Shown: piece after piece, positions 8,234 through 48,846 of the stretch | How positions within the stretch are numbered: position 1 is the stretch's first letter | Layout: every line of letters starts with the position of its first letter | Source: an uncultured Erythrobacter sp. | Lineage (GTDB): Bacteria > Pseudomonadota > Alphaproteobacteria > Sphingomonadales > Sphingomonadaceae | DNA: 64,000 nucleotides | Assembly: GCA_947495555.1 (NCBI GenBank) | Contig: CANLZI010000001.1 | Location: 36,861-100,860, forward strand | Direction: 5' to 3' | Notes under the pieces: generated by a model | What the model saw: the letters and a program-made list of their open reading frames with translations, nothing else | What the model was told of the DNA's origin: nothing | The model's database searches: none | Made by a program: the position numbers and the translations under genes

Positions 8234-8265
8234 TGCGTCGGCTTTGCGCCCCAATTTCGGACGTT
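8234..8265 (+). repeat. Junction palindrome family, copy 1
   Basis: TGCGTCGGCTTTGCGCCCCAATTTCGGACGTT, between the convergent C gene and nuclease gene. Confidence 0.7.
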
Positions 8266-8319
8266 ATTGGACGAGGATGGACTTATCAGGAGGGGACATT
8301 GGGTAGAACTGAAACTTCT

Positions 8320-9372
8320 TCAGTCTCTGTCAGAAGGCCTAAGTGTAATCTCTTCCGAGTTCTCATCGATAGAAAAGCCATCCACTTCACGCGCACTCTC
8401 TTTCAGCCACACGGGTCCAGAGTAGTAAGGGTTGACCGAGACGGCGTATTTATGAGCTGGTGACATAGTCGAGTTTGGCCCCAACACCAGCGGCTCCTTG
8501 CTTGTTACGTCATGGAAAGTTACTGAGAAAGTGTAGATCTGTATTGCCAATACAGCCTTGTTTTTCTTGCGTTCAAAGAGTCGATCAGCCGCTTCTCTCA
8601 ATTGTCCGATGGTGCTCAGCGACAGATAGAGCCCACCTACGACTAAAAAAGAAGTCTCGCCGGAACGCTGTCCTCTGGACTTTTTCCATGCCTTCTCAAT
8701 AATCTTGTCAGCGTCGATATCGACGTCTGGGTCAAGTGACCAAAGAACAAGCGGCGCTTTAACCTCGACCCCTATTTTGTCTTTGTAGGGAGTGTATTGA
8801 ACTAGGTCAGCTTCCTTGCTGGAACTCTTAGCTGACCTGACAAAGTTTACCTCGTTTCCTCGCAAGCGCTGCACATAAACGTAGATTAGGGAAACAAGAT
8901 GGTGGGCGAATGAAGTTGGTTGACGTAGCTCGTCTACTAGTTCGCGCCACGCTGGGTTCGTTTTGAAGCGATCTAGAAGGAATGCAAAAGTGCTAATCTC
9001 ACACAGCGCAGGAAAGTCGGCGGTTGGAGGATTTTGGGACAATCCCGCGATGGAAAATCGCATGCGTTCTTCTAGGTAAATTAAGCGATGTGGAATGAAC
9101 TGGCGATTGCCGTAGCGCTGAGCATTCTCGAATTTCGCACGCTGTCTGTCGTACTCTGGACCGAGAATCTCGGAAGCGATGTCCAAGTATTTCGCAAAAT
9201 CGGTCAACTTCTGACTTGTTTTTACGCGGAGGCTTGAACCAAGCGAAAATGACATTGGTTTGTGGTAAATCACCTCGCCTTTTTGCACGGTGAACTTTTT
9301 ACAACTCTCAAACCTACAACTCTCAATCTCACGGATAGAGCGATTGACGATGAATACCTCTTTCTTGGTCAA
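8320..9372 (-). CDS. Hypothetical protein with a PD-(D/E)xK nuclease-like domain
   Basis: KEADL...IGVEVK motif in a restriction-endonuclease-like context. The TTG start overlaps the upstream stop (TTGA). The DNA looks AT-richer than host genes. Confidence 0.6.
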   Translation of the reverse strand: MTKKEVFIVNRSIREIESCRFESCKKFTVQKGEVIYHKPMSFSLGSSLRVKTSQKLTDFAKYLDIASEILGPEYDRQRAKFENAQRYGNRQFIPHRLIYLEERMRFSIAGLSQNPPTADFPALCEISTFAFLLDRFKTNPAWRELVDELRQPTSFAHHLVSLIYVYVQRLRGNEVNFVRSAKSSSKEADLVQYTPYKDKIGVEVKAPLVLWSLDPDVDIDADKIIEKAWKKSRGQRSGETSFLVVGGLYLSLSTIGQLREAADRLFERKKNKAVLAIQIYTFSVTFHDVTSKEPLVLGPNSTMSPAHKYAVSVNPYYSGPVWLKESAREVDGFSIDENSEEITLRPSDRD

Positions 9373-9689
9373 GACTGATCTTCGGCGACCCCGGGGATGG
9401 CGTCATTTTGTCTTATCGCCTTGTAGACTTCATCTACAAATTCTGTCGCTCCTTGCGCGTAAATCTGCCTGAAGAAGTGTAGCATGTTGGCCGCAGGCCC
9501 GTTGAACGACCATTTACACTCAGAGAAATCACAACCGTGCATAGAGTAGTTCATGAAGCCGTTATAGACCAATGTGCAACGCTCGAGTTTGCAGTCATGC
9601 AATGATGCCCCGTCTAAAAAGATCGTCTTATCCGATATCGTTTGGCCTTCGGCGTACATGATTCTGTTCCCTTCGACTTCTTGTGCCAA
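9369..9689 (-). CDS. Small hypothetical protein with short repeat-like (possible beta-solenoid) N-terminus
   Basis: IFLDGASLHDCKLERCTLVY...CDFSECKWSF spacing. Translationally coupled to the nuclease-like gene; an alternative ATG start lies at 9659. Confidence 0.75.
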   Translation of the reverse strand: MAQEVEGNRIMYAEGQTISDKTIFLDGASLHDCKLERCTLVYNGFMNYSMHGCDFSECKWSFNGPAANMLHFFRQIYAQGATEFVDEVYKAIRQNDAIPGVAEDQS

Positions 9690-9742
9690 GAATGAGTAAC
9701 ATAACGCCTACTTTGGCTCCATACGACTGATCACGAACCGTC

Positions 9743-9757
9743 GTCACCTTAGGTGAC
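9743..9757. promoter_or_regulatory. Dyad upstream of the small protein/nuclease pair
   Basis: GTCACCT-T-AGGTGAC, a perfect 7-bp inverted repeat. Confidence 0.4.
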
Positions 9758-9850
9758 ACTTCGAATACGAAGCAATCCAAATGCCGGCTTTGCGGACTTT
9801 GACGGTTGATAGGCGACGTTCAGCCATCGGCCCACTTTTAGTCAGCGCTT

Positions 9851-9882
9851 AATGTCTTGGATTGGGGTGGAAAGCGGACAAT
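9851..9882 (-). repeat. Junction palindrome family, copy 2
   Basis: Reverse complement reads ATTGTCCGCTTTCCACCCCAATCCAAGACATT. GTCCGCTTTCCACCC is identical to copy 6 at 48820-48834. Confidence 0.75.
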
Positions 9883-9990
9883 GCCGCTTTGTGCTCGCGA
9901 GCTTTGGCCTCGCTGACACATTACAAGCATTCAAATCTGCTATTTCACTTCTGGCAATCGTACAGGCGGACTATCCAGCGTGGTCCGTTA

Positions 9991-12900
9991 TTAGGCCCCA
10001 TGGCTTGAACTGATGGACCAGAGCTTCGTAAGTTTCGCGCGTAGCTTGCTTACGCCGCCGCTCAAGTCCGACGCCGCCGCGTAAGCTGCAGGAACGACGA
10101 GCAGTGTGAGGAAAGTCGAGGTCGTTAAACCTCCGATGATTATGAACCCCATTGCGTTGCGCCATTCGGCGGCATCGGACTGCGCGAGCGCCACAGGTAG
10201 CATTCCAAAGACCGCTGCCAGCGCTGTCATCAGCACAGGTCGCAACCGCTCTGGGGCAGCGCTGCGCATCGCAGCACCGGCCTCGTCGCCTCGGTCTCGA
10301 TATTGATTGGCGAGATCGACCAATAGGATACCGTTTTTCATCACGATACCCATCAGCGCGATCATTCCAATTTGGGCGAAGAGGCTCATCTCTTCGCCCG
10401 TTGCCCACATCAGAAAATAAGCGCCGGAGAATGATAGCGGCGCGGTTAGCATGATAATTATCGGCTGGCCGAAGCTGTTGAACTGGCTCGCCAATACAAT
10501 GTAGAGCGCCACAAGCGCCAGTCCGAAGGCAAAGATGATGGCCTCGCTCGTTTCGGCCAAGCGGCGTGCGGTACCCTCCATTTGGGTGGCCACTCCAGAG
10601 GGCGACGGGTTAGCCGCCAGCAAATCTTCAACCTGTGAAACGGCGACGCTCAAAGGCACACCGGGAGCCGTGTTTGCTAACACTGAAATCTGGCGAGATC
10701 GATCGATCCGCTCTATTTCTGCGGCGCTCTGATTCACCTCAACCGTAGCGACCGAAGCAAGGTCGACCAGCGTTCCTTGCCCCGTTCGCAACGGCAGTGT
10801 TTCGACATCGTAAAGGCTCTGCCGCGCGCTTTCATCAAGGCGGACCCGCACGTCGTAGCGCCGTTCATTATCGTTGAATGTCCCCGCATCGCTGCCACCG
10901 ATAAGGGTGCGTGAGGCGGCAGCTAGGCTGCGAGCGGAAATTCCCAAATCTGCCGCGCGGTCGCGGTCGACCACAATTTGCAATTCTGGGCGCCCACCTT
11001 CGTAGGTTGATCGCACATCGACAAAATTGGATTGAGCAGCAAGTTCGCCTGTGAGCAATTGTGCATAGTCGTTGATTGCGGCTGAATCCCGTCCCGTGAT
11101 GATAAGCTCAATGGCGACCTGTCCAACACCGGCCCCGGAAACCCAAGGGACCTCTTCGACGGCAATTTCGCGCGCGCTCGGCACATTTTCGCTAAGCGCG
11201 TCGCGTGCAAATGTCATCAGATTATCTTGTGACAGATCACGGGAGCGTTTATGCGTGAGGCCAACATAGATATCGAGTTCATGCACCTTCGGGTTGCTTC
11301 CGCTGCCTGCACTCACAAATACCAGTTCGACCTCTGGGTGCTCTCGTAAGGCAATGTCGACTTGCTGTGCGGCTTCCTTCGCACTGGCAATACCCGTTCC
11401 GAGCGGCAGTTTGACCGTTACAAGAAATTCAGAGCGATCCGTTGTCGACATGAAGGTGCTGGGAACTTGGGAGGCGAATAGGCCACCGATAAACACGCTG
11501 GCGAGCGCGCCTCCGAGCACCAGATAACGCCGGTCTATCGCCCATCCAACCAGCTGTTCATAGCGTTTGCGCATCCCGACATGGAAGCTTTCAATCCTGC
11601 CAAGCCAACCACTATCGGCATGTTCGGGACGCAGTAGCCGAGCCGACATGGCCGGTGTCAGCGTGAAGGCGACCAGCATCGATACGCTGACCGAAAAGAC
11701 GATTGCAAGTCCGTATTGGAAGAAGAAGCGACCGACGATACCTTCCATGAACGCGATCGGCACAAAAACCGCCAGCGTTGCGAATGTTCCGGCCAAGACT
11801 GCCAGCGCCACGCGTTTGGTCGCTGAATGCGCTGCCTCTGTTGGCTCAACCCCTTCGTCGACGTCATTTTGTACCGCCTCGACCACAACAATCGCATCAT
11901 CGACCAGCAGGCCAATCGCGACCGTTAGCGCCAACAGTGTCACCATGTTGATGGTGAAATCGAACGCTGCAAATGCAACAAAGGTCGCAACGATTGAAGT
12001 CGGAATGGCGAGCAGCACAATGATCGTCGCACGCCAACTTAGTAGAAACAGGAAGGTAACTGCCACGACCAACAGCACTGCGATAAATAGGTCGAACAGA
12101 ACATCCCCAATCGCCTGTTCGATAAATCGCGAGGTGTCCCGTGCGATGACAAAGTTCACCCCTTCGGAAGCGGTGGCTTCAATGCTCTCGATTTCTGCGC
12201 GTATCTGCTCTGCTACTGCGACCGTGTTCTCGCCGCTCTGCTTGCGCACTTCGAGCACCACGCCAAGTTCGCCGTCGAGCTGGGCGTAGCTGTTTTCGTC
12301 TTCGACCGAATCCTCTACCCGCCCGATATCGCCTATTCTATCCGTTTGCCCATTGGGCCGATAAGCGACCGGGATCGCTGCAAACTCTGCCGCATTTGCC
12401 GCCTCGGCCAATGTGCGAATGCCGAATTGCCGGGTCCGCCCATCGGTAACCAGCCGCCCGCCCGGCAGCTCTGCGTTTTCGCGCTGGATCGCAGACAACA
12501 CATCATCCGCTGTAACCCCGCGCGCGCGCATCGCTGATGCATCAAGCCAGACGCGCATCTCGCGCTCGCGTCCGCCTACCAACTCAACCGAGCCAACACC
12601 CGGTACGCGCTGCAATCGTTCTTTGACCACTTCGTCTGCGAAGGTGGTCAGATCACGGATCGGCAAGTCACCCGAAAGAAGCACCGAAAGGATTGGTGCC
12701 GCGTCTGGGTCAACTTTTTCAATTACCGGCGGTTCAGCATCGGCGGGCAGGTCGCCCCCGAGGCGAGAGATTTTGTCGCGAACTTCTTGCGCTTTTAGGT
12801 CCGCGTTTTCCTCAAGTTCGAATTCTAGATTGACGATGCTGACCCCTTCAGCGCTGATGGACCGCATCTGTTTGAGGCCGGATATTGTGTTGAGCTGCTC

Positions 12901-13104
12901 CTCGATTATGTCGGTGACTTCTGTCTCCACCGTTCCCGGAGAAGCGCCGGGCAGAGCGGTGGTGACCGAAACGTAAGGGAACTCAACTTCGGGAAAGAGA
13001 TCGACGCCTAGGCGGCCAAATGAGACAATGCCAAGCACGACAAGCGATGCAATCAGCATTGTGGCAAAGACCGGTCGCCGGATTGAAACGTCGGCCAACC
13101 ACAT
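9991..13104 (-). CDS. RND efflux transporter permease (AcrB/AcrD/AcrF family)
   Basis: MWLADVSIRRPV start, GLLVDDAIVVVE, KNGILLV and RLRPVLMTA motifs; about 1037 aa. Confidence 0.95.
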   Translation of the reverse strand: MWLADVSIRRPVFATMLIASLVVLGIVSFGRLGVDLFPEVEFPYVSVTTALPGASPGTVETEVTDIIEEQLNTISGLKQMRSISAEGVSIVNLEFELEENADLKAQEVRDKISRLGGDLPADAEPPVIEKVDPDAAPILSVLLSGDLPIRDLTTFADEVVKERLQRVPGVGSVELVGGREREMRVWLDASAMRARGVTADDVLSAIQRENAELPGGRLVTDGRTRQFGIRTLAEAANAAEFAAIPVAYRPNGQTDRIGDIGRVEDSVEDENSYAQLDGELGVVLEVRKQSGENTVAVAEQIRAEIESIEATASEGVNFVIARDTSRFIEQAIGDVLFDLFIAVLLVVAVTFLFLLSWRATIIVLLAIPTSIVATFVAFAAFDFTINMVTLLALTVAIGLLVDDAIVVVEAVQNDVDEGVEPTEAAHSATKRVALAVLAGTFATLAVFVPIAFMEGIVGRFFFQYGLAIVFSVSVSMLVAFTLTPAMSARLLRPEHADSGWLGRIESFHVGMRKRYEQLVGWAIDRRYLVLGGALASVFIGGLFASQVPSTFMSTTDRSEFLVTVKLPLGTGIASAKEAAQQVDIALREHPEVELVFVSAGSGSNPKVHELDIYVGLTHKRSRDLSQDNLMTFARDALSENVPSAREIAVEEVPWVSGAGVGQVAIELIITGRDSAAINDYAQLLTGELAAQSNFVDVRSTYEGGRPELQIVVDRDRAADLGISARSLAAASRTLIGGSDAGTFNDNERRYDVRVRLDESARQSLYDVETLPLRTGQGTLVDLASVATVEVNQSAAEIERIDRSRQISVLANTAPGVPLSVAVSQVEDLLAANPSPSGVATQMEGTARRLAETSEAIIFAFGLALVALYIVLASQFNSFGQPIIIMLTAPLSFSGAYFLMWATGEEMSLFAQIGMIALMGIVMKNGILLVDLANQYRDRGDEAGAAMRSAAPERLRPVLMTALAAVFGMLPVALAQSDAAEWRNAMGFIIIGGLTTSTFLTLLVVPAAYAAASDLSGGVSKLRAKLTKLWSISSSHGA

Positions 13105-13105
13105 A

Positions 13106-14269
13106 TTAGGTTTCGCTCGTGGTGCGGCGCGACTTGACTGGCTCGCCAGCGCGCAAGGTTGCCGGAGGGTTGAGTATGACCTCATCTCCCTCGCTTAAAC
13201 CCGACCGAACGCGAACTCTGTCGAGGTCGATACTTTCGTATGTAACCTCGCGGCGCTGCGCTCTGCCATCCTCAACCACCAGAACAATGGCGGTGGCGTT
13301 ATCACCTTGAATTGCTGTGCCCGGCAGAATGATTGCCTGTTCTGGCGGGACCTCAATTTGAGCGCGCGCAGCTAGTCCGGAGCTAATCCGATAATTCGGG
13401 TTGCTGATCGGAAGCCGCAGTTCAACCATTCGGCTTTCCGGATCGACGCGGTCATTGATGATGTAAACGATGCTATCGAGCGGCTCATCGAACCCTTCGA
13501 TAAACACGCGAGCGGGCATGTTAAGACGAAAGGAGTCTACGTATTCCTGCGGGGCATTGACGATAGCGGCTACTGTCCCGAGCTCTTGCAATTCAAGCGC
13601 TGCCGATTGCCCGCCCATCGAGAACCGATTGTTGAGATAGACGCCCTCATCGACCAACCGCGCGGTCACGACGCCGTCATAGGGTGCGCGTGTGATCGTA
13701 TCGCTGAGCGCTTGCCTCGCCGTTCCAAGAACGGCTTCGGCTTGCGCCTTCTGCGCACGGGCTACGGCCAGCTCGGTTTCGACAGCGTCGACTTGCGCTT
13801 TTGAGACGAACCCCCTTGGGGCCAGCGCCATCACCCGGCCATATCGGCGCTCTGCTTCAATCGCTTGTGCTTCGGTCAGATCAACTGCTGCCTGCGCTTC
13901 TGCGACCCGCCGCTGATAATCAGCCTGACGAATTCGGAAGAGTGGCTGCCCGCGCGTTACTCGGTCGCCGACTTTGACGAATATCCGTTCGACCGGACCT
14001 TCGGCCAATGCACCAATTGCGCTACGCTGCTTTGCCGCGATGGTGCCAAATGCCTTGACCGGGTTGGCCAAGAGCTCGGGCTTTACGATCATCGTTTCGA
14101 CTTGGCGTGGCTCTGCCTGAGCTTGGGCTTGATCGGTCGCCTTGCTGGTTTCCGAGTTGTCCGAACACGCTGCCAAAGCTACCGCGCAGACAATTAGCCA
14201 AGCAAGAATTACGCTCCGCAGCATCTCCTTCAACCGCGCACGATCAATAGCGATTGGTCCTGCGGTCAC
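13106..14269 (-). CDS. RND periplasmic adaptor (membrane fusion protein), lipoprotein
   Basis: LAAC lipobox, VKVGDRVTRGQPLF and TRAPYDGVV lipoyl halves; directly upstream of the permease. Confidence 0.93.
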   Translation of the reverse strand: MTAGPIAIDRARLKEMLRSVILAWLIVCAVALAACSDNSETSKATDQAQAQAEPRQVETMIVKPELLANPVKAFGTIAAKQRSAIGALAEGPVERIFVKVGDRVTRGQPLFRIRQADYQRRVAEAQAAVDLTEAQAIEAERRYGRVMALAPRGFVSKAQVDAVETELAVARAQKAQAEAVLGTARQALSDTITRAPYDGVVTARLVDEGVYLNNRFSMGGQSAALELQELGTVAAIVNAPQEYVDSFRLNMPARVFIEGFDEPLDSIVYIINDRVDPESRMVELRLPISNPNYRISSGLAARAQIEVPPEQAIILPGTAIQGDNATAIVLVVEDGRAQRREVTYESIDLDRVRVRSGLSEGDEVILNPPATLRAGEPVKSRRTTSET

Positions 14270-15153
14270 GGGGCCTTTGCCTCCATACCATGATGGCGTT
14301 TGAGAAATCCGACAATTGCAGCCGAAAATGCATCATTGGAATCTCCAACAACCATGTGCGTTGCGCCTGCAATGTCCGTGTATTCGGCATGAGGGACGAG
14401 TTCATGCAGGTGCGCGACTGACTCCTCAGAAACTAGATCGCTCGACCCGCCCCGGATTAGATGGAGCGGTAGCGACAAATTTGCCGCCGCTTGGCTCAGC
14501 CCTTCAAACTGTCTTTCCTGATGATCTGGAGCCAAGCGCTGCTCATTCATGATGTTGCGGATGAACATTGGATCCCAGTGCCAATAGAAGCGGCCATCGT
14601 CCTTTTGCCGCAGATAATGTTTGAGGTTACCTCCAGCCCCGCGCTTCTGGCGATGCGGCATGTAACTGGCGATAATTTCCGCCGCCTCTTCCGCGGAAGC
14701 AAACCCGCGATCAATATGCTTCTCCATGAAGCCCACCACGCGCATGACCCCGCTTGGCTCCATCCGTGGCGCGATGTCCACCAGAGTGAGCGAGGCGAAG
14801 CTACCCGAAGCAAGTTCACCCTCGGCAATCATGCCTGCAAGCCCGCCAAGCGAAGCACCGACAACCGCAGGTTTGCAATCCAGCTGGGACGCAATCGCAA
14901 CGAGATCGGAAGCAAAGTCACGAAGGTCATAGGAGCCGTCTTCAGACCATGCGCTGTCGCCATGGCCGCGCAAATCAAGCGCAATGACACGGAAGCCAGC
15001 CGAGGTGAGTTCACCAGTGACACGCTTCCAGGCGCGGCGGGTCTGCCCACCACCATGCGCAAGCAAGACAGGCAGTCCTATTTCACTTCCTGAGACTTCG
15101 GCGGCAAGCTCGATCGCCGCATGGCCTCTGATGGTTTGAACTTTAATCGGCAT
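14266..15153 (-). CDS. Alpha/beta fold hydrolase
   Basis: HGGGQT oxyanion loop, DLRGHGDS, nucleophile GASLGG and catalytic His in GATHMV. Confidence 0.9.
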   Translation of the reverse strand: MPIKVQTIRGHAAIELAAEVSGSEIGLPVLLAHGGGQTRRAWKRVTGELTSAGFRVIALDLRGHGDSAWSEDGSYDLRDFASDLVAIASQLDCKPAVVGASLGGLAGMIAEGELASGSFASLTLVDIAPRMEPSGVMRVVGFMEKHIDRGFASAEEAAEIIASYMPHRQKRGAGGNLKHYLRQKDDGRFYWHWDPMFIRNIMNEQRLAPDHQERQFEGLSQAAANLSLPLHLIRGGSSDLVSEESVAHLHELVPHAEYTDIAGATHMVVGDSNDAFSAAIVGFLKRHHGMEAKAP

Positions 15154-15188
15154 AACTATCAGTTCCTATATTGTAATTCATTTTACAG

Positions 15189-15200
15189 TAAAGTACTTTA
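15189..15200. promoter_or_regulatory. Putative MarR operator
   Basis: Perfect palindrome TAAAGTACTTTA between the divergent hydrolase and MarR genes. Confidence 0.6.
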
Positions 15201-15231
15201 TTTTTCTCAGCCCGGTGGTATGGCTGCCCAC

Positions 15232-15705
15232 ATGGAAATCAATTTGGACAAAGACGCTGATGCAGCCGCAGAGAGCTTTCTGACTGACACTGATCGGTTC
15301 GTTTTTTTGCTGGAGGACGTAACCTCGCGATTGCGGCGCAACTTTGATTTTTCAGTCGAGCAGTTTGGCCTCACTCGCACGCAGTGGCGCACTTTGGCCT
15401 ATGTTTACCGGACACCTGGAATGACTCAGACGCAGCTAGCAAAGCGGCTAGACCTAGAACGCGCCAGTATTGGTCAGGCAATCGATAGGCTTGAGAAAAT
15501 GGAGCTGGTCGAACGACGAAGTGCGCAAAATGATCGGCGCGTGTGGCATGTACACCTGCTGCCTGCTGCAATTGAGTTACTGCCAGCATTGCGCAAGGAG
15601 GCAGACGCCACCTATGAAAGGCTGCTCTCTGGTTTGGATTTCAACGATCTGGAGCGCTTCGGTAGAGCCCTAGCAAAGATGCGTGATAACCTTGATATCG
15701 ATTAG
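15232..15705 (+). CDS. MarR-family transcriptional regulator
   Basis: GLTRTQWRTL...TQTQLAKRLDLERASIGQAIDRLEKMELVERR...DRRV wHTH. Confidence 0.92.
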   Translation: MEINLDKDADAAAESFLTDTDRFVFLLEDVTSRLRRNFDFSVEQFGLTRTQWRTLAYVYRTPGMTQTQLAKRLDLERASIGQAIDRLEKMELVERRSAQNDRRVWHVHLLPAAIELLPALRKEADATYERLLSGLDFNDLERFGRALAKMRDNLDID

Positions 15706-15751
15706 GCATTGGTTGGTAGGGAACGGGCCATCAGTTGGGCAGACTTAGATG

Positions 15752-15781
15752 AACTTCTGCTTTTGGGTCGTAAGCGGACTG
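15752..15781 (-). repeat. Junction palindrome family, copy 3
   Basis: Reverse complement reads CAGTCCGCTTACGACCCAAAAGCAGAAGTT; 46 bp after the MarR stop. Confidence 0.7.
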
Positions 15782-16145
15782 TCAGATTCTGGCCTGTTGT
15801 GAGCGAAGGCTGAAGCTAGAAAACTAGCAGAAAGACCACTTTCTCACATCCAATCGTTCCTTGTGTTGCAAATCCCAACGAGTATCTCGTTGACTATAAG
15901 TTGAGCCGTTTTTGGGAAATCCTTCGTGAGCAACCATGAATATACCCCACCCATGCTTCGCTCTAAACCCCCATGGGGCCCCTACGCCCAGAAAAGAATT
16001 CTTTCTTGTCGGCATCTCAATGCATGCCGAAGTAGTGTAGTACCGAGACGTCAAAAACGTTCGATCTTCACGTGCAATAGTCCGAAGAAGATGGTCCCGT
16101 TAGAGAGAGGGCTAAGAAGCCGTTGCACGACAGGCAGTTACAAAA

Positions 16146-16168
16146 ATGTGGGAGGCAGCGTGGGGGTA
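16146..16168. promoter_or_regulatory. Putative right-end integrase arm-type sites
   Basis: ATGTGGGAG and GCGTGGGGGTA match the GTGTGGGAG motif at the left end; about 50 bp inside attR. Confidence 0.55.
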
Positions 16169-40919: not shown

Positions 40920-41056
40920 GAGAGGGCCTGGATCAGTGGGAATTCGTGGTCATGGCCTATGCTGTGGCTATTGCGGGCACGCTGGTCATGATCGGCTGGA
41001 GCTGGCTCTCTATGCGCCGGGCAGAAGCGCGCCGTGACAAGGTCAAACGCAAATGA
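40916..41056 (+). CDS. ccmD: Heme exporter protein CcmD
   Basis: Manual translation MREGLDQWEFVVMAYAVAIAGTLVMIGWSWLSMRRAEARRDKVKRK; overlaps ccmC and ccmE. Confidence 0.85.
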   Translation: MREGLDQWEFVVMAYAVAIAGTLVMIGWSWLSMRRAEARRDKVKRK

Positions 41057-41523
41057 GCGGACTGAAAGCCAAACATCAGCGATTGGTGCTGATCGTGATT
41101 GCCCTGGTCGCGATTTTGGGCGCTGGATTGCTGGCGGCCTGGGCGCTGCGCAATCAAGCCAACTATTTCTATTTGCCGGATCAATTGGTGGAAGCTCCGC
41201 CTGCGCCCGGACAACCCGTTCGTTTGGGCGGAATGGTGGCACAAGGCTCAATTCGGACGCTGAGCGATGGTGTGACCGTGTCCTTTGTCGTCACCGATCA
41301 AGAGGCCGCCCGAGTGCCGGTGCAGTTCAGCGGCATCCTACCCGATTTGTTTGTCGAAGGATCGGGCGTGGTGGCCGAGGGTAGCTTGAACCGTGACGGC
41401 GTGTTCATCGCAGACAATCTGCTGGCCAAGCATGACGAGAATTACGTGCCGAGAGAGCTTCAGGAAATAAGCCAGCATCAGGCTGCGCGCATGGCTGAAG
41501 AAACGACGGTGGGCCTAGAGTGA
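41053..41523 (+). CDS. ccmE: Cytochrome c maturation heme chaperone
   Basis: LLAKHDENY heme-binding motif. Confidence 0.96.
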   Translation: MSGLKAKHQRLVLIVIALVAILGAGLLAAWALRNQANYFYLPDQLVEAPPAPGQPVRLGGMVAQGSIRTLSDGVTVSFVVTDQEAARVPVQFSGILPDLFVEGSGVVAEGSLNRDGVFIADNLLAKHDENYVPRELQEISQHQAARMAEETTVGLE

Positions 41524-43481
41524 TTGCAGAGCTAGGTCTGGCCGCGCTTTGGCTGTGCGCCGCGTTGGCTGTGTTGCAGCTGATCGGCGGGGCATTGGCT
41601 CAGCGCAGGGACACTGCATCCGGTTTGGCAGCGATGGTACGCCCAGCAGCAATGTTGCAAGGCTTGCTCGCCGGATTGGCCTTTGCCTGTCTGCTGTGGG
41701 TGTTCGCGGTGACCGATTTATCGGTGAAACTGGTCGCGACCAACTCGCACAGCTTAAAGCCGATGCTGTTCAAACTGTCGGGTGCATGGGGCAATCACGA
41801 AGGCTCTATGCTGTTGTGGGTGACGGTGATGGCATTGGCTGGCGGTTTGATCGCGATGGTCGAAAAGCGCCTGCCAGAAAAGACCATGCAGGCCACCTTG
41901 GCCGCGCAAGGGTTTGTGGCCATCGGTTTTTATGCCTTTCTGCTGATTAGCTCCAACCCGTTTGAGCGACTGGCTGTTGCAGCGGTTGAGGGTCAGGGGC
42001 TGAACCCCTTGCTGCAAGACGCTGGCTTGGCCTTTCATCCACCCACCTTGTATTTTGGTTATGTCGGACTGTCTGTCGCTTTCAGCTTTGCTGTTGGGGC
42101 CTTGCTGACGCGCAATGTAACGCCCGAATTCGCCCGCGTCATGCGCCCATGGGTGCTGGGCGCTTGGGTGTTCCTCACACTCGGCATTACGGCGGGCAGT
42201 TACTGGGCCTATTACGAATTGGGCTGGGGCGGCTGGTGGTTTTGGGACCCGGTAGAGAACGCATCGCTGATGCCGTGGCTGGCGGCGACTGCTTTGCTCC
42301 ACTCAGTCAGCGTTCTGGCCGCGCGCGATGCCTTGCGTACCTGGACGATTATGCTGGGCGTTGTCGCCTTTTCGATGAGCATGCTGGGCACATTCCTGGT
42401 TCGCTCAGGCCTGCTTACCAGTGTGCACGCTTTTGCGGTTGATCCAGAGCGCGGCACCTTCATCCTGTTTCTGTTGGCGATCTATATCGGTGGAGCATTG
42501 CTGCTGTTTGGCTTGCGCGCAGGTCATGTTCGCGAAGGGGAGCGGTTTCAACTGACCAGCCGCGAGGGCGCTTTGGTGTTCAATAATGTTATGCTGAGCG
42601 CAATTTTGGGGATCGTGCTGTTGGGCACATTGTATCCGCTGTTGACCGAAGCCTTTGACGTGCGCGTGTCGGTCGGGCCTCCTTACTTTAATCCGGTCGG
42701 TGCCATTTTCACGATCCCAATGTTGTTGGTGATGGCGGTAGGGCCGCTGCTCAGGTGGCGCAGGGATTCGATCGAGCGGATCAAACTACCGATCGCAATC
42801 GTCACCTCAATTATCGTCTCTGTGGCGGTATTGGCTGCGCTCATGGGAGATATTGCCGTTCTGCCCCTATTAGGCTTGTGCGTTGCCATCGGATTGGCTG
42901 TGGCCAGCTTCCTGCCTCTTCGCGGACGCAACCTATTGCGCGTGCCGATTGCGACTTGGGGCATGGTCTTGGCGCATTTCGGGATCGCCGTAGCGTTGTT
43001 TGGCATGGCCAGTGACAGCGCTTTTACCAAAGAACGCCTTGCCGCACTGCAGCTGGGCGAGGAAGTAACGGTGGGCGATTGGCGGGTCACATTGGACGGC
43101 GTTGACCCAGTTGCTGGCCCAAATTGGACCGCGATGGAGGCTCAAGTTTCAGCGTGGCGGGGATCAGGCGCTCCGATCCTGTTGCTGCCCCAGTCTCGCA
43201 ATTTCTGGGCTCCGCCCATGCAAACCAGTGAAAGCGCGCTGGCTACGCAATGGGATGGACAGCTTTACGCGGTTATCGGCAACCGAACCGAAGATGGCCG
43301 GTGGCAGTTGCGGGTGTGGTGGAAGCCGTTTGTCACCTTCATCTGGTATGGTGGACTGTTGATTGCGCTGGGTGGGGCGCTGGCCGCAATTGGCCGAGTG
43401 ATGGCCGATTTGAAACGTCGCAGCGTTCGGGCGAGGGCAAACAGCCGCCGGACAGAGCGCCGTGCAAAGGGGTTCGCCTGA
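41520..43481 (+). CDS. ccmF: Cytochrome c heme lyase subunit
   Basis: WGNHEGS, HPPTLY and WGGWWFWDPVEN. Confidence 0.96.
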   Translation: MIAELGLAALWLCAALAVLQLIGGALAQRRDTASGLAAMVRPAAMLQGLLAGLAFACLLWVFAVTDLSVKLVATNSHSLKPMLFKLSGAWGNHEGSMLLWVTVMALAGGLIAMVEKRLPEKTMQATLAAQGFVAIGFYAFLLISSNPFERLAVAAVEGQGLNPLLQDAGLAFHPPTLYFGYVGLSVAFSFAVGALLTRNVTPEFARVMRPWVLGAWVFLTLGITAGSYWAYYELGWGGWWFWDPVENASLMPWLAATALLHSVSVLAARDALRTWTIMLGVVAFSMSMLGTFLVRSGLLTSVHAFAVDPERGTFILFLLAIYIGGALLLFGLRAGHVREGERFQLTSREGALVFNNVMLSAILGIVLLGTLYPLLTEAFDVRVSVGPPYFNPVGAIFTIPMLLVMAVGPLLRWRRDSIERIKLPIAIVTSIIVSVAVLAALMGDIAVLPLLGLCVAIGLAVASFLPLRGRNLLRVPIATWGMVLAHFGIAVALFGMASDSAFTKERLAALQLGEEVTVGDWRVTLDGVDPVAGPNWTAMEAQVSAWRGSGAPILLLPQSRNFWAPPMQTSESALATQWDGQLYAVIGNRTEDGRWQLRVWWKPFVTFIWYGGLLIALGGALAAIGRVMADLKRRSVRARANSRRTERRAKGFA

Positions 43482-44005
43482 TGCGATGGACATTGTGGGT
43501 GCCTTTGGCACTGTTCACCTTCTTTCTGGGGCTTGCCGCCTATCAGCTGAGCCAGCCCAAGGATGATGTCATCGTGTCGGGCATGATCGGCAAACCGTTG
43601 CCGCAATTCTCGCTCGAACCGATCAGTCCGGACCGACCCGGCGTCAGCACTGCCGATTTTCAGGACGGCACGCCCAAGCTGCTCAATATCTGGGCCAGTT
43701 GGTGCCTACCCTGCATTGCTGAGGCTCCGCATTTGGAGCGGTTGAAGGAGCAAGGCGTACAGATCATCGGCATTGCCATTCGGGACAAGCCGGAAGATGT
43801 CGCGCGCTTTCTCAACCGACATGGCAATCCTTATACGCGGATCGGATCGGATGATCTTTCTGCCATCCAGTTTGAATTGGGTTCATCCGGTGTGCCCGAA
43901 ACCTATGTCATCGATGGTGATGGCATGATCCGTTACCAGCATATTGGCGATGTCAGAGCAGAGCATGTGCCCATGCTGATCCAGCAGCTGGAGGCGGCCC
44001 GATGA
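43481..44005 (+). CDS. ccmG: DsbE-family thiol:disulfide interchange protein
   Basis: WASWCLPC and SGVPETYVID. Confidence 0.93.
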   Translation: MRWTLWVPLALFTFFLGLAAYQLSQPKDDVIVSGMIGKPLPQFSLEPISPDRPGVSTADFQDGTPKLLNIWASWCLPCIAEAPHLERLKEQGVQIIGIAIRDKPEDVARFLNRHGNPYTRIGSDDLSAIQFELGSSGVPETYVIDGDGMIRYQHIGDVRAEHVPMLIQQLEAAR

Positions 44006-44457
44006 CGCGCCATTTCCTTGCCTGGATGGCCGGGCTGGCAGCCATGGCTAGCGCCATGTTCGCAATGCCCATTCTGGCGCAAAGCAGCACAGCTCCTGCG
44101 CCTTATGCTTATCAGCAATTGGACGATCCTGCGCTAGAGCGGCGCGCGACCGATTTGATGCATACGCTGCGCTGCCTCACCTGCCAAAGCCAGTCGATCG
44201 CCGATAGCGATGCCAGCATGGCCGGCGATATGCGCCATCAGGTCCGCACCCGGATTTTGGCCGGAGAAGAACCAGAGGCGATCCGTGCGTGGCTGATCGA
44301 GCGCTATGGCGACTATGTCAGCTATGATCCGCAGGTCAGCGCAACCACATGGCCTCTGTTCGCGGTACCCTTGCTATTGTTGCTGCTTGCCGGATTGATC
44401 CTGCGCAAACGAATTGGTCGCGGCGGTGTGGCTGATAGAGAGGGAGAGGGCACATGA
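44002..44457 (+). CDS. ccmH: Cytochrome c biogenesis protein CcmH
   Basis: LRCLTCQSQSIADS. Confidence 0.93.
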   Translation: MTRHFLAWMAGLAAMASAMFAMPILAQSSTAPAPYAYQQLDDPALERRATDLMHTLRCLTCQSQSIADSDASMAGDMRHQVRTRILAGEEPEAIRAWLIERYGDYVSYDPQVSATTWPLFAVPLLLLLLAGLILRKRIGRGGVADREGEGT

Positions 44458-45104
44458 GCTGGCTTCCCATCATCGCGCTAGCGGCAATCGCCTTTCTGGT
44501 CGCCGCCTTTGTCCTGCGTCTACCGCGCCGCAGCTGGACATTCTTTGGTGCCGTGCTGCTGTTCGGGCTGGCCGGATATGCCGTGCAGGGCCAACCAGGG
44601 TTGCCAGCTGCGCCCAAAGCTGCCGACATTCGCGCATCGCAATCAGGCGAAGCAATGGTGGAGGCCCGGCAGGAATTGTTCGATCCTGCGCAGCCACGCC
44701 CGGGCTATCTGACGGTGTCGGATGGCTTTGCGCGTAAGGGCCGGTTTGACCAGGCGGCGCAATTGCTGCGCAAAGGACTGCAGGACAACCCAAACCATGG
44801 CGAAGGCTGGCTGGCCTTGGCCAATGCTCTGGTTGAGCATGCCGAAGGGCAAGTGACCCCGCCTGCCACCTATGCCTTTGCCAAGGCTGAGGAAACCATG
44901 CCCGGCAATCCAGCCCCAGCCTATTTCCTTGGATTCTCGCTGCTGCGTTCGGGCAAGCCGGACGAGGCCCGCGGTGTGTGGCAGGCCTTGTTGGATTCAT
45001 CGCCCGATAATGCGCCGTGGCGCGATGATTTGGCCACCCGGCTCGAGCGGCTCGACCAACTCATTGACCTGATCGAGGCGCAACCGATCCAGCCAGCGCC
45101 GTAA
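44454..45104 (+). CDS. TPR protein, CcmI/CycH-like
   Basis: N-terminal TM helices and TPR-like helices; last gene of the ccm cluster. Confidence 0.75.
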   Translation: MSWLPIIALAAIAFLVAAFVLRLPRRSWTFFGAVLLFGLAGYAVQGQPGLPAAPKAADIRASQSGEAMVEARQELFDPAQPRPGYLTVSDGFARKGRFDQAAQLLRKGLQDNPNHGEGWLALANALVEHAEGQVTPPATYAFAKAEETMPGNPAPAYFLGFSLLRSGKPDEARGVWQALLDSSPDNAPWRDDLATRLERLDQLIDLIEAQPIQPAP

Positions 45105-45250
45105 CCGGCATCCTTTCAGCAGCCCAATCGCAGCTTGCCGGGCGGAATTGGCGGTGCTAAGCGCCGCCGCCTTGCGTTCGAAGCGGTAAAGTTTGCCGAC
45201 AGTCAGTGCGCATGGGCAGTACCGGAACCACATCGGGAAATCCTTAGGGT

Positions 45251-47176
45251 ATGAGCGAAAACACAGCGCCAGCAATTGCCTCGCCACATGGCGGGAAGGG
45301 CGGTCATCAGGGCACCAAAGCGGCCTTGGCCGTTGGCGCTATTGGTGTCGTGTTTGGCGATATTGGTACCAGCCCGCTGTATGCTTTCCGCGAAACCTTT
45401 GTTGGCCCGCACCCGCTCGCGCTGGATGCGGCCCATGTATTGGGTGTTATCAGCCTGATCTTCTGGTCGATGACGCTGGTCGTTGCGATCCAATATGTCA
45501 CCATTCTGATGCGCGCTGATAACAAGGGGCAGGGCGGTTCGCTCGCTCTGGTTGCTCTCATCTCCAGCCATATCAGCAAGTCGAAATACGGCTGGCTGGC
45601 GGTGCTGTTGGGGGTCTTTGCGACATCGCTGTTCTATGGCGATAGCATGATCACGCCGGCCATTTCCGTTCTATCGGCGGTGGAGGGTTTGACGGTCGTT
45701 GACGAGGGTTTGCAGCCCTTTGTTATCCCTATTGCGCTCGCGCTGCTGGTGTTCCTGTTCGTGCTGCAGAAACGCGGCACGGCCAAGGTCGGCGCGCTGT
45801 TTGCGCCGGTGATGATCGTCTATTTCACGGTCATCGCATCGATGGGTGCGTGGCAAATCATCCAGACACCCGACATCTTGTGGGCGCTCAACCCCTATCA
45901 CGCGATTAATTTCTTCGTCCTCGATGGTTGGCTGGCGTTTTTAGCACTGGGTTCGGTGGTGTTGGCGGTAACCGGTTCAGAGGCGCTATACTCGGACATG
46001 GGCCATTTCGGCAGAGGCCCCATGCGCCTGTCATGGTTCGGCTTTGTCATGCCTTGCCTATTGCTCAACTATTTCGGACAGGGCGCGATGATCATCGGCC
46101 TTCCGCCAGAGCAAGCCGCTGAGGCCATTCAGAGCCCGTTCTTCTTCCTTGCGAATGAGGAATGGCGCCTGCCGCTGGTGTTTCTCGCCACCTTTGCAAC
46201 CTTTATCGCCAGCCAGGCCGTGATCTCGGGCGCGTTCTCTATCACTCATCAGGCAATCCAGATGGGCTATATCCCCCGTCTGTCGATTCGCCACACCAGC
46301 GAGACAGAGGGCGGCCAGATTTACATTCCGGTGGTCAATTGGGCGCTGATGGTGGCCGTTATCATTCTGGTGCTGACCTTCCAAAACTCGTCCAATCTCG
46401 CCAGCGCCTATGGCATCGCCGTAACCGGCGCGGTCACCATCGATACGCTGCTGATGGGTGTGCTGTTTGTGGGCGTATGGAAGTGGAAGTGGTGGTACGC
46501 CGCGCCCGTCGTCGCTCTGTTCCTGATCGTTGATGGCGCCTATTTCGCAGCCAACCTCACCAAGGTTCCTGATGGCGGCTGGTTCCCGCTGATGGTCGGC
46601 TTTATCGCCTTCCTGCTGCTGACCACTTGGGCGCGCGGCCGCAAGTTGATGCGCGCACGGATGAGCGAAGTTGCTCTGCCAATGGAAATCTTTGCCAAAT
46701 CGGCCAACAATTCGGCCACCCGCGTTCCCGGCACGGCGATCTTTATGGCCTCTGCCACCGCAGGCGTACCATCGGCGCTGCTGCACAATATCAAGCATAA
46801 TAAGGTGCTGCATGAACGCGTGGTGATCCTGACGGTCAACATCACCGACGAACCCTATGTCGATCCAGCGCTACGTTGCGAATACACCGATATGGGCGAC
46901 GGGTTTTATCGCGGCGTGTTGAACTATGGCTTCATGGAAGAAACCAATGTTCCGCAAGGGCTGAAACAGATGGAGCAGTGCGGCGGCGAGTTTGACATGA
47001 TGCAAACCAGCTTCTTCCTCTCGCGCCAGACGCTGTTGGCCAGCGAAAATCCGGGAATGCCAATCTGGCGGGAGAAGATCTTCGCCTGGATGCTGCGCAA
47101 TTCGGCAACGGCGATGGAATTCTTCCGCCTGCCAACCAATCGCGTGGTCGAATTGGGCAGCCAAGTCGAGATTTAG
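45251..47176 (+). CDS. kup: Potassium transporter Kup
   Basis: [23 protein letters not shown] and SFFLSR. Confidence 0.96.
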
Positions 47177-47200
47177 CACTGTGTGCCGAGCTCGGTTCTG

Positions 47201-47231
47201 TGCGTCTGCAAGCGACCAAGTTGCAGACATT
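47201..47231 (+). repeat. Junction palindrome family, copy 4
   Basis: TGCGTCTGCAAGCGACCAAGTTGCAGACATT, 24 bp after the kup stop. Confidence 0.7.
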
Positions 47232-47278
47232 CTGGGGAAATGCTTCAATGTGAGTGTGTGCAAACCGGAGAGCGCAGC

Positions 47279-47500
47279 ATGGTTGGAAAAATATTGATGA
47301 TCCTTGCCATTATCGCGACTTGCGTCAGCGCGTGCATGGCAGTCCTCGTGGTGTTGATTGTCGGCGGTACACTGTTCGAAGTTTATTCCACCACCTATCT
47401 GGTCGATTGGTCAAATCCATCAGACCTATTCATGCTCCTCCTGATATACGCGCCACTTCCCCTCTGGCTCGCCTTCTTTCTTTCTCGGTTCGCTCGGTAA
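47279..47500 (+). CDS. Small two-TM hypothetical protein
   Basis: GGAG RBS, two hydrophobic segments; the TAA stop overlaps the first bases of repeat copy 5. Confidence 0.7.
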   Translation: MVGKILMILAIIATCVSACMAVLVVLIVGGTLFEVYSTTYLVDWSNPSDLFMLLLIYAPLPLWLAFFLSRFAR

Positions 47501-47529
47501 TGGGCGACTTCGACCAAATTGCGGGCGTT
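47499..47529 (+). repeat. Junction palindrome family, copy 5
   Basis: AATGGGCGACTTCGACCAAATTGCGGGCGTT, between the two inserted genes. Confidence 0.6.
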
Positions 47530-47613
47530 GAATTCCTTTGACCATTCGCATCAAAGCAGGTGGAAGTTTCGGCAAATCGTCACGTCCAAAATAGAATTGA
47601 GGAAGGCAAACAA

Positions 47614-48600
47614 TTAAAGTTCGTGCAATTTGGTGGCCATTCCTCCTATGTCACCAATTGCAAAGAAGGCATCGTGCTCACTTATTGTGACTGGTCTTTG
47701 CAAACGGTATTGACCATTCGCGTCCTTGATTAGGGGCGATATCAAGTCAAAATCTTGGCCACTGACCTCAGCCCTGCCCCTCACCGCCCACGCGACTTCA
47801 CCCCATTTAACTTGCTCATATGTTTCAGCGCTCCAATCGATTTCATGCTCTGAGATCAGAAGACGAATGTTGATCGTTAGTTTCTTCAGATGCGCCCAAG
47901 AGTCTGCAAACGAATTATACTCCAGCCCTTTGAATGGCTCCCATCCTTCAAAGTTCACCGACACAACGATTTCTTCGTTTCTCGGCAGCTCTGCGGTGTT
48001 TCGGGGATTGCCGAAGAAGTGCCAGTCAAGCAGATCATTGATCGACAACTTCTTACCGTCAGCTTGCCGGAATATCTTTTCGAATGGGCTCGGCATCTCT
48101 CCCTGGGGTTTACTTGGATCAATTCTCATGGGGTGCAGAGGTTCGATCATCAAACCCTCGACCTTATCGTACCGAACGTTCTGGAGTTTTGGGTGCGCTT
48201 CGAACCCAATTCCCTCAAGCTTTCCCTGATCAAGTCCCTTAAGAGTCAGGAGCCGCACCGTTGGGCCTACCTCATCTGCTTTCTCTTCGATTGACGCGGG
48301 GAACCCTTCTTCTGAAACGCAGATCAAATGCTGAGCTCCCACCTCACGCATTTTTTCCAACCAGCCTCCGAATTCTCCAATTGTCGGTTTGCAACCCCGC
48401 TTTTGGACTTCAATAATCGACGTAGTTTGCCGAGGCGCCTCGCCATGAATAACCACTACATCACATTGCCGCTTTCTTGCGCTCTTGCTTGCAAGGACTC
48501 GTAGCTGTTGATTCCACAAAACCTTGGCCCCATTGCCAAGTCGGCTTTCGATCGCCGCGACAATCTTCTCTTTCCGCTTCCAGTCTGGGTCTGTGCTCAA
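47614..48600 (-). CDS. Restriction endonuclease-like protein (Mrr-type catalytic N-terminal domain)
   Basis: RQCDVVV...IIEVQKR...KMREVGA...CVSEEGF fits the Mrr_cat-type pattern. No methyltransferase is adjacent; TTG start. Confidence 0.7.
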   Translation of the reverse strand: MSTDPDWKRKEKIVAAIESRLGNGAKVLWNQQLRVLASKSARKRQCDVVVIHGEAPRQTTSIIEVQKRGCKPTIGEFGGWLEKMREVGAQHLICVSEEGFPASIEEKADEVGPTVRLLTLKGLDQGKLEGIGFEAHPKLQNVRYDKVEGLMIEPLHPMRIDPSKPQGEMPSPFEKIFRQADGKKLSINDLLDWHFFGNPRNTAELPRNEEIVVSVNFEGWEPFKGLEYNSFADSWAHLKKLTINIRLLISEHEIDWSAETYEQVKWGEVAWAVRGRAEVSGQDFDLISPLIKDANGQYRLQRPVTISEHDAFFAIGDIGGMATKLHEL

Positions 48601-48816
48601 TAGCTGTAATCCTGACTAAGAGTTTTGACGGCGGAACGTGTAGGGTTCTTGGGAGCTATCTTCCGAAACTAGAGAACATTGTTTGTATAGGTAAACGTAT
48701 TGCTTCCGAACGTGCGAGCTAAGGAATCCAAGTGCGATAACCCGTTCCCATTGTCAATTTTGAGGATACGGATGACAAATTTTGACAGCTGCCGCGCCGC
48801 TCGATCGTAAAGGACG

Positions 48817-48846
48817 AACGTCCGCTTTCCACCCAGTAGCAGGCCC
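48817..48846 (+). repeat. Junction palindrome family, copy 6
   Basis: AACGTCCGCTTTCCACCCAGTAGCAGGCCC, ending 9 bp from the yciB stop. Confidence 0.75.

Follow-up and report, generated by a model that had tools for sequence, protein, structure and literature searches.

Short palindromes at gene-module boundaries in an uncultured Erythrobacter are probably the targets of a small tyrosine recombinase encoded elsewhere in the genome

Results

A family of short palindromes with alternative centres

The 64-kb stretch of DNA analyzed here (the window; C1:36861-100860 of an uncultured Erythrobacter genome of 2.78 Mb in 4 contigs, 56.7% G+C) carries six short palindromes, S1 to S6, which, judging from sequence comparison, are probably the targets of a tiny recombinase encoded elsewhere in the genome. 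An earlier note on this DNA had listed six related imperfect palindromes at accessory-gene junctions and had read them as an integrase-free cassette system. All six strings claimed in it were found, each exactly once in the whole window; the coordinates were correct for the plus-strand copies, but for the two minus-strand copies the number quoted was the end of the span now given in Table 1. Five of the six are solid members of one family, but S5 is a degenerate half-site with a decayed left arm, which scored 8.9 bits (E=0.17, or E=0.035 when the search was confined to spacers) and aligned only over its centre and right arm (model positions 11-32). The scores of the other five (Table 1) come from a model whose training set included S1, S2, S3, S4 and S6 but not S5.

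The core TCCGCTTTCCACCC has 8 genomic copies, where 0.03 would be expected, and iterated nhmmer searches gave two sub-families of 29 and 31 matches, corresponding to 54-56 distinct sites genome-wide; S1, S2 and S6 fall in the first sub-family and S3 and S4 in the second. No above-chance match to the model was found elsewhere in the window, core operons included. A generic repeat finder run on the window missed the family, whose short and strongly diverged copies escape it, and Rfam, which yielded just two tRNAs in the window, gave no match to the sites.

Each site is laid out as two inverted arms of about 12 bp, AATGTCCGCwww and wwwGCGGACATT, flanking an asymmetric centre of 7-8 bp. We aligned 62 distinct sites from this genome and from G017, the nearest species compared (an uncultured Erythrobacter whose kup protein is 99.8% identical), and obtained the consensus A..GTCCGCTT.CCACCC.AATTGCGGAC.TT, which can be parsed into a left arm of (A)ATGTCCGC followed by three A/T bases, then a centre rich in C, then A/T bases and GCGGAC(A/G)TT as the right arm. 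The alignment bears out the inverted GTCCGC/GCGGAC arms around an asymmetric C-rich centre that had been described from the six copies. When the sites were sorted by centre, 42 of 80 belonged to class A (CCACCCCA), 34 to class B (CGACCCA) and 2 to class C (GCGCCCCA). The left arm and the centre are better preserved than the right arm.

Covariation between the arms is absent (69.0% of cells paired, compared with 69.4% after shuffling), and the single-strand folds of the six window sites are weak, ranging from 0 to -7.1 kcal/mol and mostly no better than those of shuffled sequences; S4 is the sole exception (z < -2 in 1 of 6 sites). Taken together, the absent covariation and the weak folds suggest that the arms look like protein half-sites on duplex DNA and not like a selected hairpin. 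On the same two grounds a hairpin, attC-like or terminator identity of the sites was ruled out, and an intrinsic terminator was further rejected on the missing T-run in the alignment and the mixed orientation to the upstream gene. The sites have the generic core-site layout of tyrosine recombinases, with inverted arms, a short asymmetric centre, and a switch of homology within the centre region.

Modules and sites in the window

The sites in the window delimit the segments M1, M2 and M3 (Table 1). M2 holds an operon-like set of genes encoding an AcrB-type RND pump (9991-13185), a membrane-fusion protein (13106-14269), an alpha/beta hydrolase (14266-15153) and a MarR regulator (15121-15705), and the left arm of its S3 site is abutted by an extra GAC arm. 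The cargo of M1 is two overlapping genes (9369-9689, 106 aa; 8320-9372, 350 aa), enclosed in a C(+)...A(-) frame that elsewhere in the genome encloses the recombinase gene; S1 has a long-form tail that reaches about 8304 and carries a second GGGGACATT arm. M3 contains a small open reading frame (ORF; 47183-47500 or 47254-47541) and, on the minus strand, an ORF of 328 aa (47614-48600); homology to G017 is lost at the right arm of S4 and picks up again at the left arm of S6. No Pfam or PADLOC match was obtained with the cargo proteins of either M1 or M3. An exact-protein look-up of the 350-aa M1 protein gave no match, and that of the 328-aa M3 protein returned only two short contigs from related strains. 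A metagenomic contig with the 328-aa-ORF cassette (L273) runs from the centre of S6 to the left-arm edge of S5, and a second contig with this ORF, from a related strain, continues into yciB.

Table 1. Sites, modules and neighboring features of the window (positions in the window; bits are scores against the family model)
Feature	Position	Strand	Description
S1	8234-8265	+	Class C, 21.8 bits; class shared with the site upstream of every group-1 recombinase gene
S2	9851-9882	-	Class A, 22.2 bits; 3' boundary of M2; G017 homology ends past the centre
S3	15752-15781	-	Class B, 21.7 bits; 5' boundary of M2
S4	47201-47231	+	Class B, 15.9 bits; 25 nt past the kup stop codon; kept in G017
S5	47499-47529	+	Degenerate B-like half-site (remnant of class B); centre and right arm recognizable, left arm decayed
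S6	48817-48846	+	Class A, 21.5 bits; 10 nt past the yciB stop codon; kept in G017
Module M1	8266-9850	-	Between inverted S1(+) and S2(-); not aligned to G017
Module M2	9863-15783	-	B site, cargo, A site
Variable segment M3	47232-48816		Between S4 (class B) and S6 (class A)
kup (K+ transporter)	45251-47176	+	Conserved left flank of the S4-S6 locus
yciB/ispA	48856-49518	-	Conserved right flank of the S4-S6 locus
XRE/HTH_3 gene, 78 aa	7978-8214	+	Ends 19 nt before S1
tRNA-Tyr (1612-1697) and full-length P4-type integrase (1826-3121)	1612-3121	+	Ordinary tRNA island

Sites lie at breaks of homology and in accessory DNA

Genome-wide, and with gene calls that are crude (made by a codon-usage gene caller), 52 of 56 sites lie outside genes of typical codon usage, compared with a non-genic share of just 13% of the genome, and two of the four intragenic matches are the weakest matches. 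Many sites stand 10-60 nt past a stop codon, in either orientation relative to the gene. They form more than 10 separate clusters, the largest at C1:2155-2188 kb with 16 sites and others at C1:1479-1480, 1755-1759, 790-798, 347-350 and 554-571 kb, on the 17-kb contig C3 and at contig ends, and all five of the five island-type integrases have a site cluster within about 7 kb.

Two side observations concern these clusters. The accessory region at C1:2148-2204 kb, in which the largest cluster lies, has an integrase with a 415-aa open frame at its near boundary (2148531-2148947) and an IS6-family transposase (DDE_Tnp_IS240; C1:2193600-2194148) at its far end. Assembly contigs start or end at sites or at site-flanked repeats (C1:61-85, C2:113-139, C3:526 and 16963, C4:1356-1372), with C2:113 and C3:16963 sharing 130 bp at 98% and C1:61 and C4 sharing 77 bp at 100%, which suggests that the assembly breaks at site modules.

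To relate the sites to gene content we compared this genome with G017, of which 2.38 of 2.74 Mb (87%) was aligned; within that covered sequence the counterpart of the core region of the window is the kup-yciB piece only. Homology blocks with a minimum of 500 bp and 85% identity were considered, and a block end was scored as having a site when one lay within 40 bp. By this measure 18 of 275 internal block ends have a site, and 18 of 54 sites stand at a block end, compared with 1.85 for random intergenic positions (at most 7 in 200 draws). A further 33 of the 54 are in DNA without a G017 counterpart (20 for random intergenic positions), some of which may fall in the uncovered 13% of G017, and only 3 of the 54 are inside conserved blocks, where 32 would be expected from random intergenic positions. 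G017's own sites behave similarly, 14 of 27 being at block ends. The claim that the sites sit at the boundaries of accessory genes and are missing from core operons therefore holds genome-wide, and the enrichment at presence/absence breakpoints that the earlier note had suggested looking for was found in the comparison with G017.

Modules move as units and are replaced between site pairs

Module M2 recurs in G017 at C1:332615-338535, where it has a different context, and the two copies are 99.85% identical, the highest identity among 123 blocks of at least 2 kb (median 94.6%). Likewise, C1:554902-557497 corresponds to G017 C1:162974-165572, which in G017 directly adjoins the recombinase unit, and C1:2166585-2175452, an 8.9-kb module with a second RND operon, corresponds to G017 C1:948444-957310, where it is inserted at the locus matching 1480 kb of this genome. 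Each of these three modules has a site at both ends and a different context in the two species. At five further loci the same site pair encloses unrelated DNA in the two genomes. Between S4 and S6, kup and yciB are separated by 1587 bp here, compared with 262 unrelated bp in G017, and between the sites at 570160 and 570690 there are 10.5 kb in G017, compared with 0.5 kb here. The length of the kup-yciB spacer (window 47177-48855 and the syntenic loci L039-L051) ranges between 128 bp and 4.9 kb within the genus, members that lack the sites included, which argues that this gap is a general hotspot as well.

As a side observation, 264 bp just outside S3 (15751-16014) recur in G017 at C1:162508-162770 with 91.7% identity; the G017 copy adjoins the counterpart of C1:554902-557497 and the G017 recombinase unit, and the stretch overlaps the point where contig C2 ends.

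When neighboring sites less than 20 kb apart were counted in this genome and G017, 46 of 52 pairs were direct. Along the direction of the sites, gaps large enough for cargo ran from B to A in 27 cases, from A to B in 4, from A to A in 6 and from B to B in 1, and six A-to-B gaps of -3 to 111 bp were doublets. These counts reveal a pattern in which a module consists of a B site, cargo and an A site, and neighboring modules meet at A·B doublets. Many class-B sites have an extra GCnGAC arm against the left arm, resembling the right arm of an A·B doublet. In the window, S3-cargo-S2 and S4-cargo-S6 obey the B-cargo-A order, and S1(+)/S2(-) is among the few inverted pairs.

A catalytic-domain recombinase is nested between sites

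The first gene of the largest array, about 2.1 Mb from the window, encodes a tyrosine recombinase of 212 aa (C1:2155234-2155872). The protein matches PF00589 (the phage-integrase family) at 5.6e-22; its best solved-structure match is the catalytic domain of XerD (XerD residues 124-282 to query residues 41-200), and its Arg, His-x-x-Arg, His and Tyr motifs align with those of XerD. To judge from these alignments, the recombinase is a catalytic domain only. Curated sub-family models for Xer proteins, invertases and integron integrases scored it far below their cut-offs. The gene is intact and is the single full copy in the genome. A remnant of 44-48 residues is present on the 17-kb contig C3 at 9419-9562, and C1:349870-350019 is part of a separate integrase with a 372-aa open frame and not a fragment of the mini recombinase.

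Two sites frame the recombinase gene, one of class C (+) 63 nt upstream of it and one of class A (-) 33 nt downstream. The proposal of an integrase-free system fails at this point, since the genome encodes an intact tyrosine recombinase nested between two sites, and the window itself is without a cognate enzyme. The rest of the proposal, a cassette system with a recombinase that acts in trans, fares better: its reading of the repeats as module junctions is supported by the breaks at sites and the moved modules.

At least 8000 database proteins belong to the recombinase family, and among the matches listed most are 210 aa long, carry generic names only and come from Erythrobacter, Qipengyuania, Altererythrobacter, Parasphingorhabdus and Sphingomicrobium, with Rhizobiales proteins at about 78% identity. 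There are 352 plasmid records with family members, some of them enterobacterial (about 50% identity). Recombinase copies that are at least 93% identical are found in species whose yciB is only 64-95% identical, and the excess over yciB identity indicates that the recombinase unit moves horizontally.

Forty-two recombinase loci from named genomes were aligned with the upstream site as the anchor. In the upstream flank a fraction of 0.2-0.4 of the loci has the consensus base, the left arm is conserved just at its G.C.GC positions, and conservation rises to about 0.9 from the first base of the centre GCGCCCCA onward. The downstream site is mirrored, with the inner arm and centre (GTCCGCTTcT-GGGGGTG) kept and the outer arm variable. 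Together, the two patterns place both ends of the conserved recombinase unit at an arm/centre boundary. In four genomes the unit and its downstream neighbor are identical but the upstream neighbor differs. Identity between loci L199 and L201 begins with the first base of the centre and extends rightwards, and L198 switches at the opposite edge of the centre; as far as these alignments go, such switch points are what one would expect from strand exchange at both ends of an overlap region.

The nesting of a recombinase gene between sites is conserved across genera, even across classes. In a second recombinase clade (68-78% identity, Rhizobiales included), GGGGTGG-AAA-GCGGA(A/C) is found downstream of the gene, followed by a back-to-back arm, and the Rhizobiales variant of the site is GGGGTGGAAAGCGGA with a back-to-back palindrome. 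The Escherichia coli IncY plasmid pZPK-H98 (L274 3940-4655) encodes a 200-aa "site-specific integrase" that shares 49.5% identity with the mini recombinase. Its gene has TAATGTCTGC on the upstream side and AGCGGACATT on the downstream side, with arms AATGTCTGC and GCGGACATT, and sits in an accessory region beside betT and a DUF2254 gene.

Other features were seen around these genes. A palindrome, GGCCATTCCGGCC, is conserved about 35 nt upstream of the recombinase start codon (L192-L238; for example, L052:1465-1500), just before the ribosome-binding site and after a second GCGGACATT arm, and may be an operator or a translational hairpin. In the second clade (L240-L271; Rhizobiales, Sphingomonas and other genera), the downstream order is a terminator hairpin, the GGGGTGG-AAA-GCGGA(A/C) sequence and the back-to-back palindrome (GCGGAC-n-GTCCGC), the last of which opens a longer GTCCGCTTT...AAAGCGGAC element; we take this element to resemble the short repeats that are mis-translated as small hypothetical proteins in many alphaproteobacterial genomes.

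Sites and recombinase occur together, with exceptions

A sequence-only site model (R1) was scanned over 40 other members of the genus, which hold 0 to 68 sites per genome. Seven or more sites were present in 11 of 11 genomes with a close recombinase, compared with 12 of 29 without (Fisher 6e-4; Mann-Whitney 1e-3). Among 120 genomes of the family, at least 5 sites were present in 7 of 26 with any member of the recombinase family, compared with 6 of 94 without (p=0.007). The earlier note had suggested checking whether the repeats co-occur with a particular recombinase or HUH transposase family. The sites do go with the mini recombinase, but the relation is one-sided, with site-rich genomes that are free of it (G042 and G015, considered below). 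No match to a Y1 HUH transposase (PF01797) was found in the genome under study in a search that matched its positive controls, and an identity of the sites as the repetitive extragenic palindromes (REPs) of REP-associated tyrosine transposases (RAYTs) was ruled out on this ground.

The surrounding island

Modules S1-S3 form the distal cargo end of the island at tRNA-Tyr. The P4-type integrase of this island, built of arm-binding, central and catalytic domains, is not the enzyme that serves the 31-bp sites, and the island also encodes a primase-polymerase with DUF5906 (4499-6832). Codon usage in the island is atypical, and the gene caller passed over 1.8-9.9 kb. A copy of the tRNA-Tyr 3' end (attR) that would delimit the island was sought, and none was found at up to 3 mismatches. 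A small XRE/HTH_3 gene, like the one that precedes S1, also ends about 20 nt before the class-C site of the recombinase unit (C1:2154912-2155124). The two genes are non-homologous at the DNA level, and their shared placement may be a coincidence or a regulatory link.

Discussion

The results reported above concern a site family, its anatomy, its association with breakpoints, moved modules with a common polarity, and a recombinase nested between sites, all of which are observed directly. We consider it likely, from these comparisons of sequences, that the palindromes serve as the core sites of a site-specific recombination system by which gene modules are moved and swapped and that the mini recombinase is its enzyme. 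We hypothesize that the arms are where the recombinase binds, that strand exchange takes place in the centre or at its edges, and that recombination would be restricted to sites with like centres. Like sites in direct orientation could then excise or integrate circles that carry an A·B doublet, modules could be swapped between replicons via like sites, and DNA would invert where sites face each other, as at S1/S2 and in the recombinase unit. Sites may persist as relics or may move with modules into enzyme-free genomes. Applied to the window, this mechanism would make S3...S2 the frame of a recently exchanged RND-pump module and S4...S6 that of a replaceable kup-yciB segment, and the two genes between S1 and S2 would form a unit in the same C(+)/A(-) arrangement as the recombinase gene elsewhere in the genome.

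Several points weigh against this interpretation. The recombinase has none of the usual N-terminal domain with which such enzymes clamp DNA, and many right arms of the sites are degenerate. Where the break appears within a site varies: modules on the right-arm side show it at the left-arm edge, and those on the left-arm side past the centre. The apparent break is the far edge of the conserved part of the site, relative to the side of the conserved flank, as would be expected if partner sites hardly differ, but in one case an unusual left arm (GTTCGGC) moves along with its module. In 16 class-A and class-B junctions the crossover is bracketed within the site and not mapped, since the partner sites are too alike, and the centre is the position most consistent with them. 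Two single-contig genomes without the recombinase have many sites (G042, 65; G015, 22), which suggests that sites outlive the enzyme, travel with modules, or serve something else. In addition, the genome-wide breakpoint analysis covers one close genome pair, and the first 400 kb of G017 was picked for its repeat matches and recombinase, the final count using all covered sequence.

The last of these biological points also bears on the identity of the enzyme. The sites could be real exchange points served by a housekeeping Xer protein or an island integrase, as with pdif modules, a reading to which the site-rich genomes G042 (65 sites) and G015 (22 sites), the two 311-aa Xer-like genes of the genome and the closeness of all five island-type integrases to site clusters (within about 7 kb) lend some weight. 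We nevertheless regard it as unlikely: the mini recombinase is nested between sites in at least 42 loci and in the E. coli plasmid homolog, the homology of the recombinase unit switches exactly at the site centre, and one common core site would be unexpected for island integrases that are mutually different (open frames of 372-498 aa). The layout of 12-7/8-12 also differs from the 11-6-11 of dif, and neighbors are direct in 46 of 52 pairs, unlike the alternating pdif sites.

Two other explanations leave out site-specific recombination. Selfish repeats of the REP type, or of the type of miniature inverted-repeat transposable elements (MITEs), might gather in accessory DNA and let modules be exchanged by homologous recombination over the repeats. 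The sites are indeed short, dispersed and extragenic, often 10-60 nt past stop codons and in both orientations, and their variable break positions are what homologous exchange would produce; still, such an origin seems to us improbable given that a RAYT/Y1 transposase was not found in the genome, that the arms show neither covariation nor a stable hairpin, that target duplications were not seen at junctions, and that just 3 of 54 sites are in conserved DNA. The strict B-cargo-A polarity with its A·B doublets and the dedicated recombinase nested in sites also speak against it, and the 20-30 bp shared between sites are at the lower limit for RecA. An even less probable reading, to which we give very little credence, is that the sites are functional 3'-end elements (terminators, mRNA stabilizers, or binding sites of a regulator or nucleoid protein) that coincide with breakpoints since convergent gaps vary freely. 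It would account for the many sites just past stop codons, for the over-representation of convergent gaps, and for a kup-yciB spacer that is variable across the genus, species without sites included. Against it stand the missing T-run and weak folds, an orientation to the upstream gene that is not fixed, the 33 of 54 sites within genome-specific DNA together with modules that carry sites into new contexts, and the fact that core operons, which also need terminators, are without sites.

Recombination at the sites by the mini recombinase thus remains the interpretation that we prefer. A full-text literature search that included the site strings returned no description of such a system, and we lean slightly toward the broader view that it is an undescribed and widespread one, in which a catalytic-domain-only recombinase and 31-bp sites with heterospecific centres reshuffle B-cargo-A modules in island and plasmid cargo across Alphaproteobacteria, as an independently evolved analog of the integron. 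Integrons are the textbook case of bacterial gene-cassette collection, are rare in Alphaproteobacteria, and mostly hold cassettes of single promoterless genes. If the broader view is true, bacteria would have a second solution unrelated to integrons, with a smaller enzyme, double-stranded core sites and two alternating site classes, and its modules could be as large as whole operons, such as the RND efflux operon that appears to have moved as one block at 99.85% identity. It would explain how island and plasmid cargo regions are assembled in marine Erythrobacter and relatives, and the site would give annotators a concrete mark of module boundaries. The compact recombinase with its naturally heterospecific sites could then also serve as a tool. 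The recombinase family, with its at least 8000 database proteins and 352 plasmid records, bears generic names only.

Comparison with known systems

Some features of the sites recall dispersed repeats. REPs and the bacterial interspersed mosaic elements (BIMEs) composed of them also have a single-copy enzyme gene between two inverted short palindromes, are dispersed genome-wide and form composite doublets, but the RAYT is a Y1 HUH transposase, and REPs form hairpins, number in the hundreds and occupy conserved extragenic positions, whereas here about 54 sites without covariation are nearly all in accessory DNA. A MITE identity was ruled out, with no target-site duplications seen on reading the junction alignments and a unit of just 31 bp. 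Cis-mobilizable elements (CIMEs), accreted elements, the dRS3 repeats and intergenic mosaic elements (NIMEs) of Neisseria and minimal mobile elements are similar in that they include integrase-less blocks with att-like sites, arranged in tandem and mobilizable in trans, and in that variable islets lie between conserved genes, as between kup and yciB. In CIMEs, however, the att sites are those of one particular integrase of an integrative and conjugative element, with arm-type sites, and neisserial minimal mobile elements move by homologous recombination with their flanks; the present sites are 31-bp cores of a uniform kind with a link to a mini recombinase.

Other parallels are found among tyrosine recombinases. 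The pdif modules of Acinetobacter plasmids are likewise discrete, have short core sites and varied contexts, and can be without their enzyme, which acts in trans; however, pdif mimics the chromosomal dif site (11-6-11), uses the host XerCD and alternates in inverted orientation, while the sites described here are non-dif by layout (12-7/8-12), mostly direct (46 of 52 pairs) and accompanied by a dedicated recombinase family. The FimB/FimE invertases and the shufflon recombinase Rci resemble the mini recombinase as proteins of about 200 aa without the N-terminal domain, and two units here have inverted frames, but the recombinase scores 23.9 bits with PRK09871 (cut-off 222) and 16.7 with PRK09870 (cut-off 221), and most site pairs here are direct and bound mobile cargo rather than a promoter switch. 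The arrangement of identical arms with differing centres (A, B and C), which would limit recombination to like sites, and of modules between two different site classes, exchangeable as a unit, is that of recombinase-mediated cassette exchange with Cre/lox or Flp/FRT. There the use is engineered; here the arrangement is natural, and compatibility by centre is presumed.

A further likeness is that to integrons, which also combine a tyrosine recombinase with many short imperfect palindromes bounding cassettes that differ between close relatives, with sites at the 3' ends of cargo and arrays of sites in direct orientation. The differences begin with the enzyme, IntI having about 320 aa and an extra domain compared with 212 aa here, and the recombinase reaches only 22.6 bits with TIGR02249 (cut-off 265) and 18.8 with PRK15417 (cut-off 435). 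An attC site has 57-141 bp, R''/L''...L'/R' boxes and a folded single strand, but the sites here have 31 bp and arms of the double-stranded type, and no R boxes (RYYYAAC / GTTRRRY) were seen on reading the site alignment. Instead of one attC per cassette there are two alternating classes (B at the 5' side, A at the 3' side), and instead of one array beside intI, with attI and Pc, there are more than 10 loci, in tRNA islands and on small contigs, although the largest array (C1:2155-2188 kb) does begin with the recombinase, itself framed by sites. Unlike integron cassettes, the cargo here includes whole operons with their own regulators, and the recombinase gene is itself bounded by sites. An identification as an integron failed on the enzyme family, the attC structure and the single array beside intI, and the system would be integron-like in its working.

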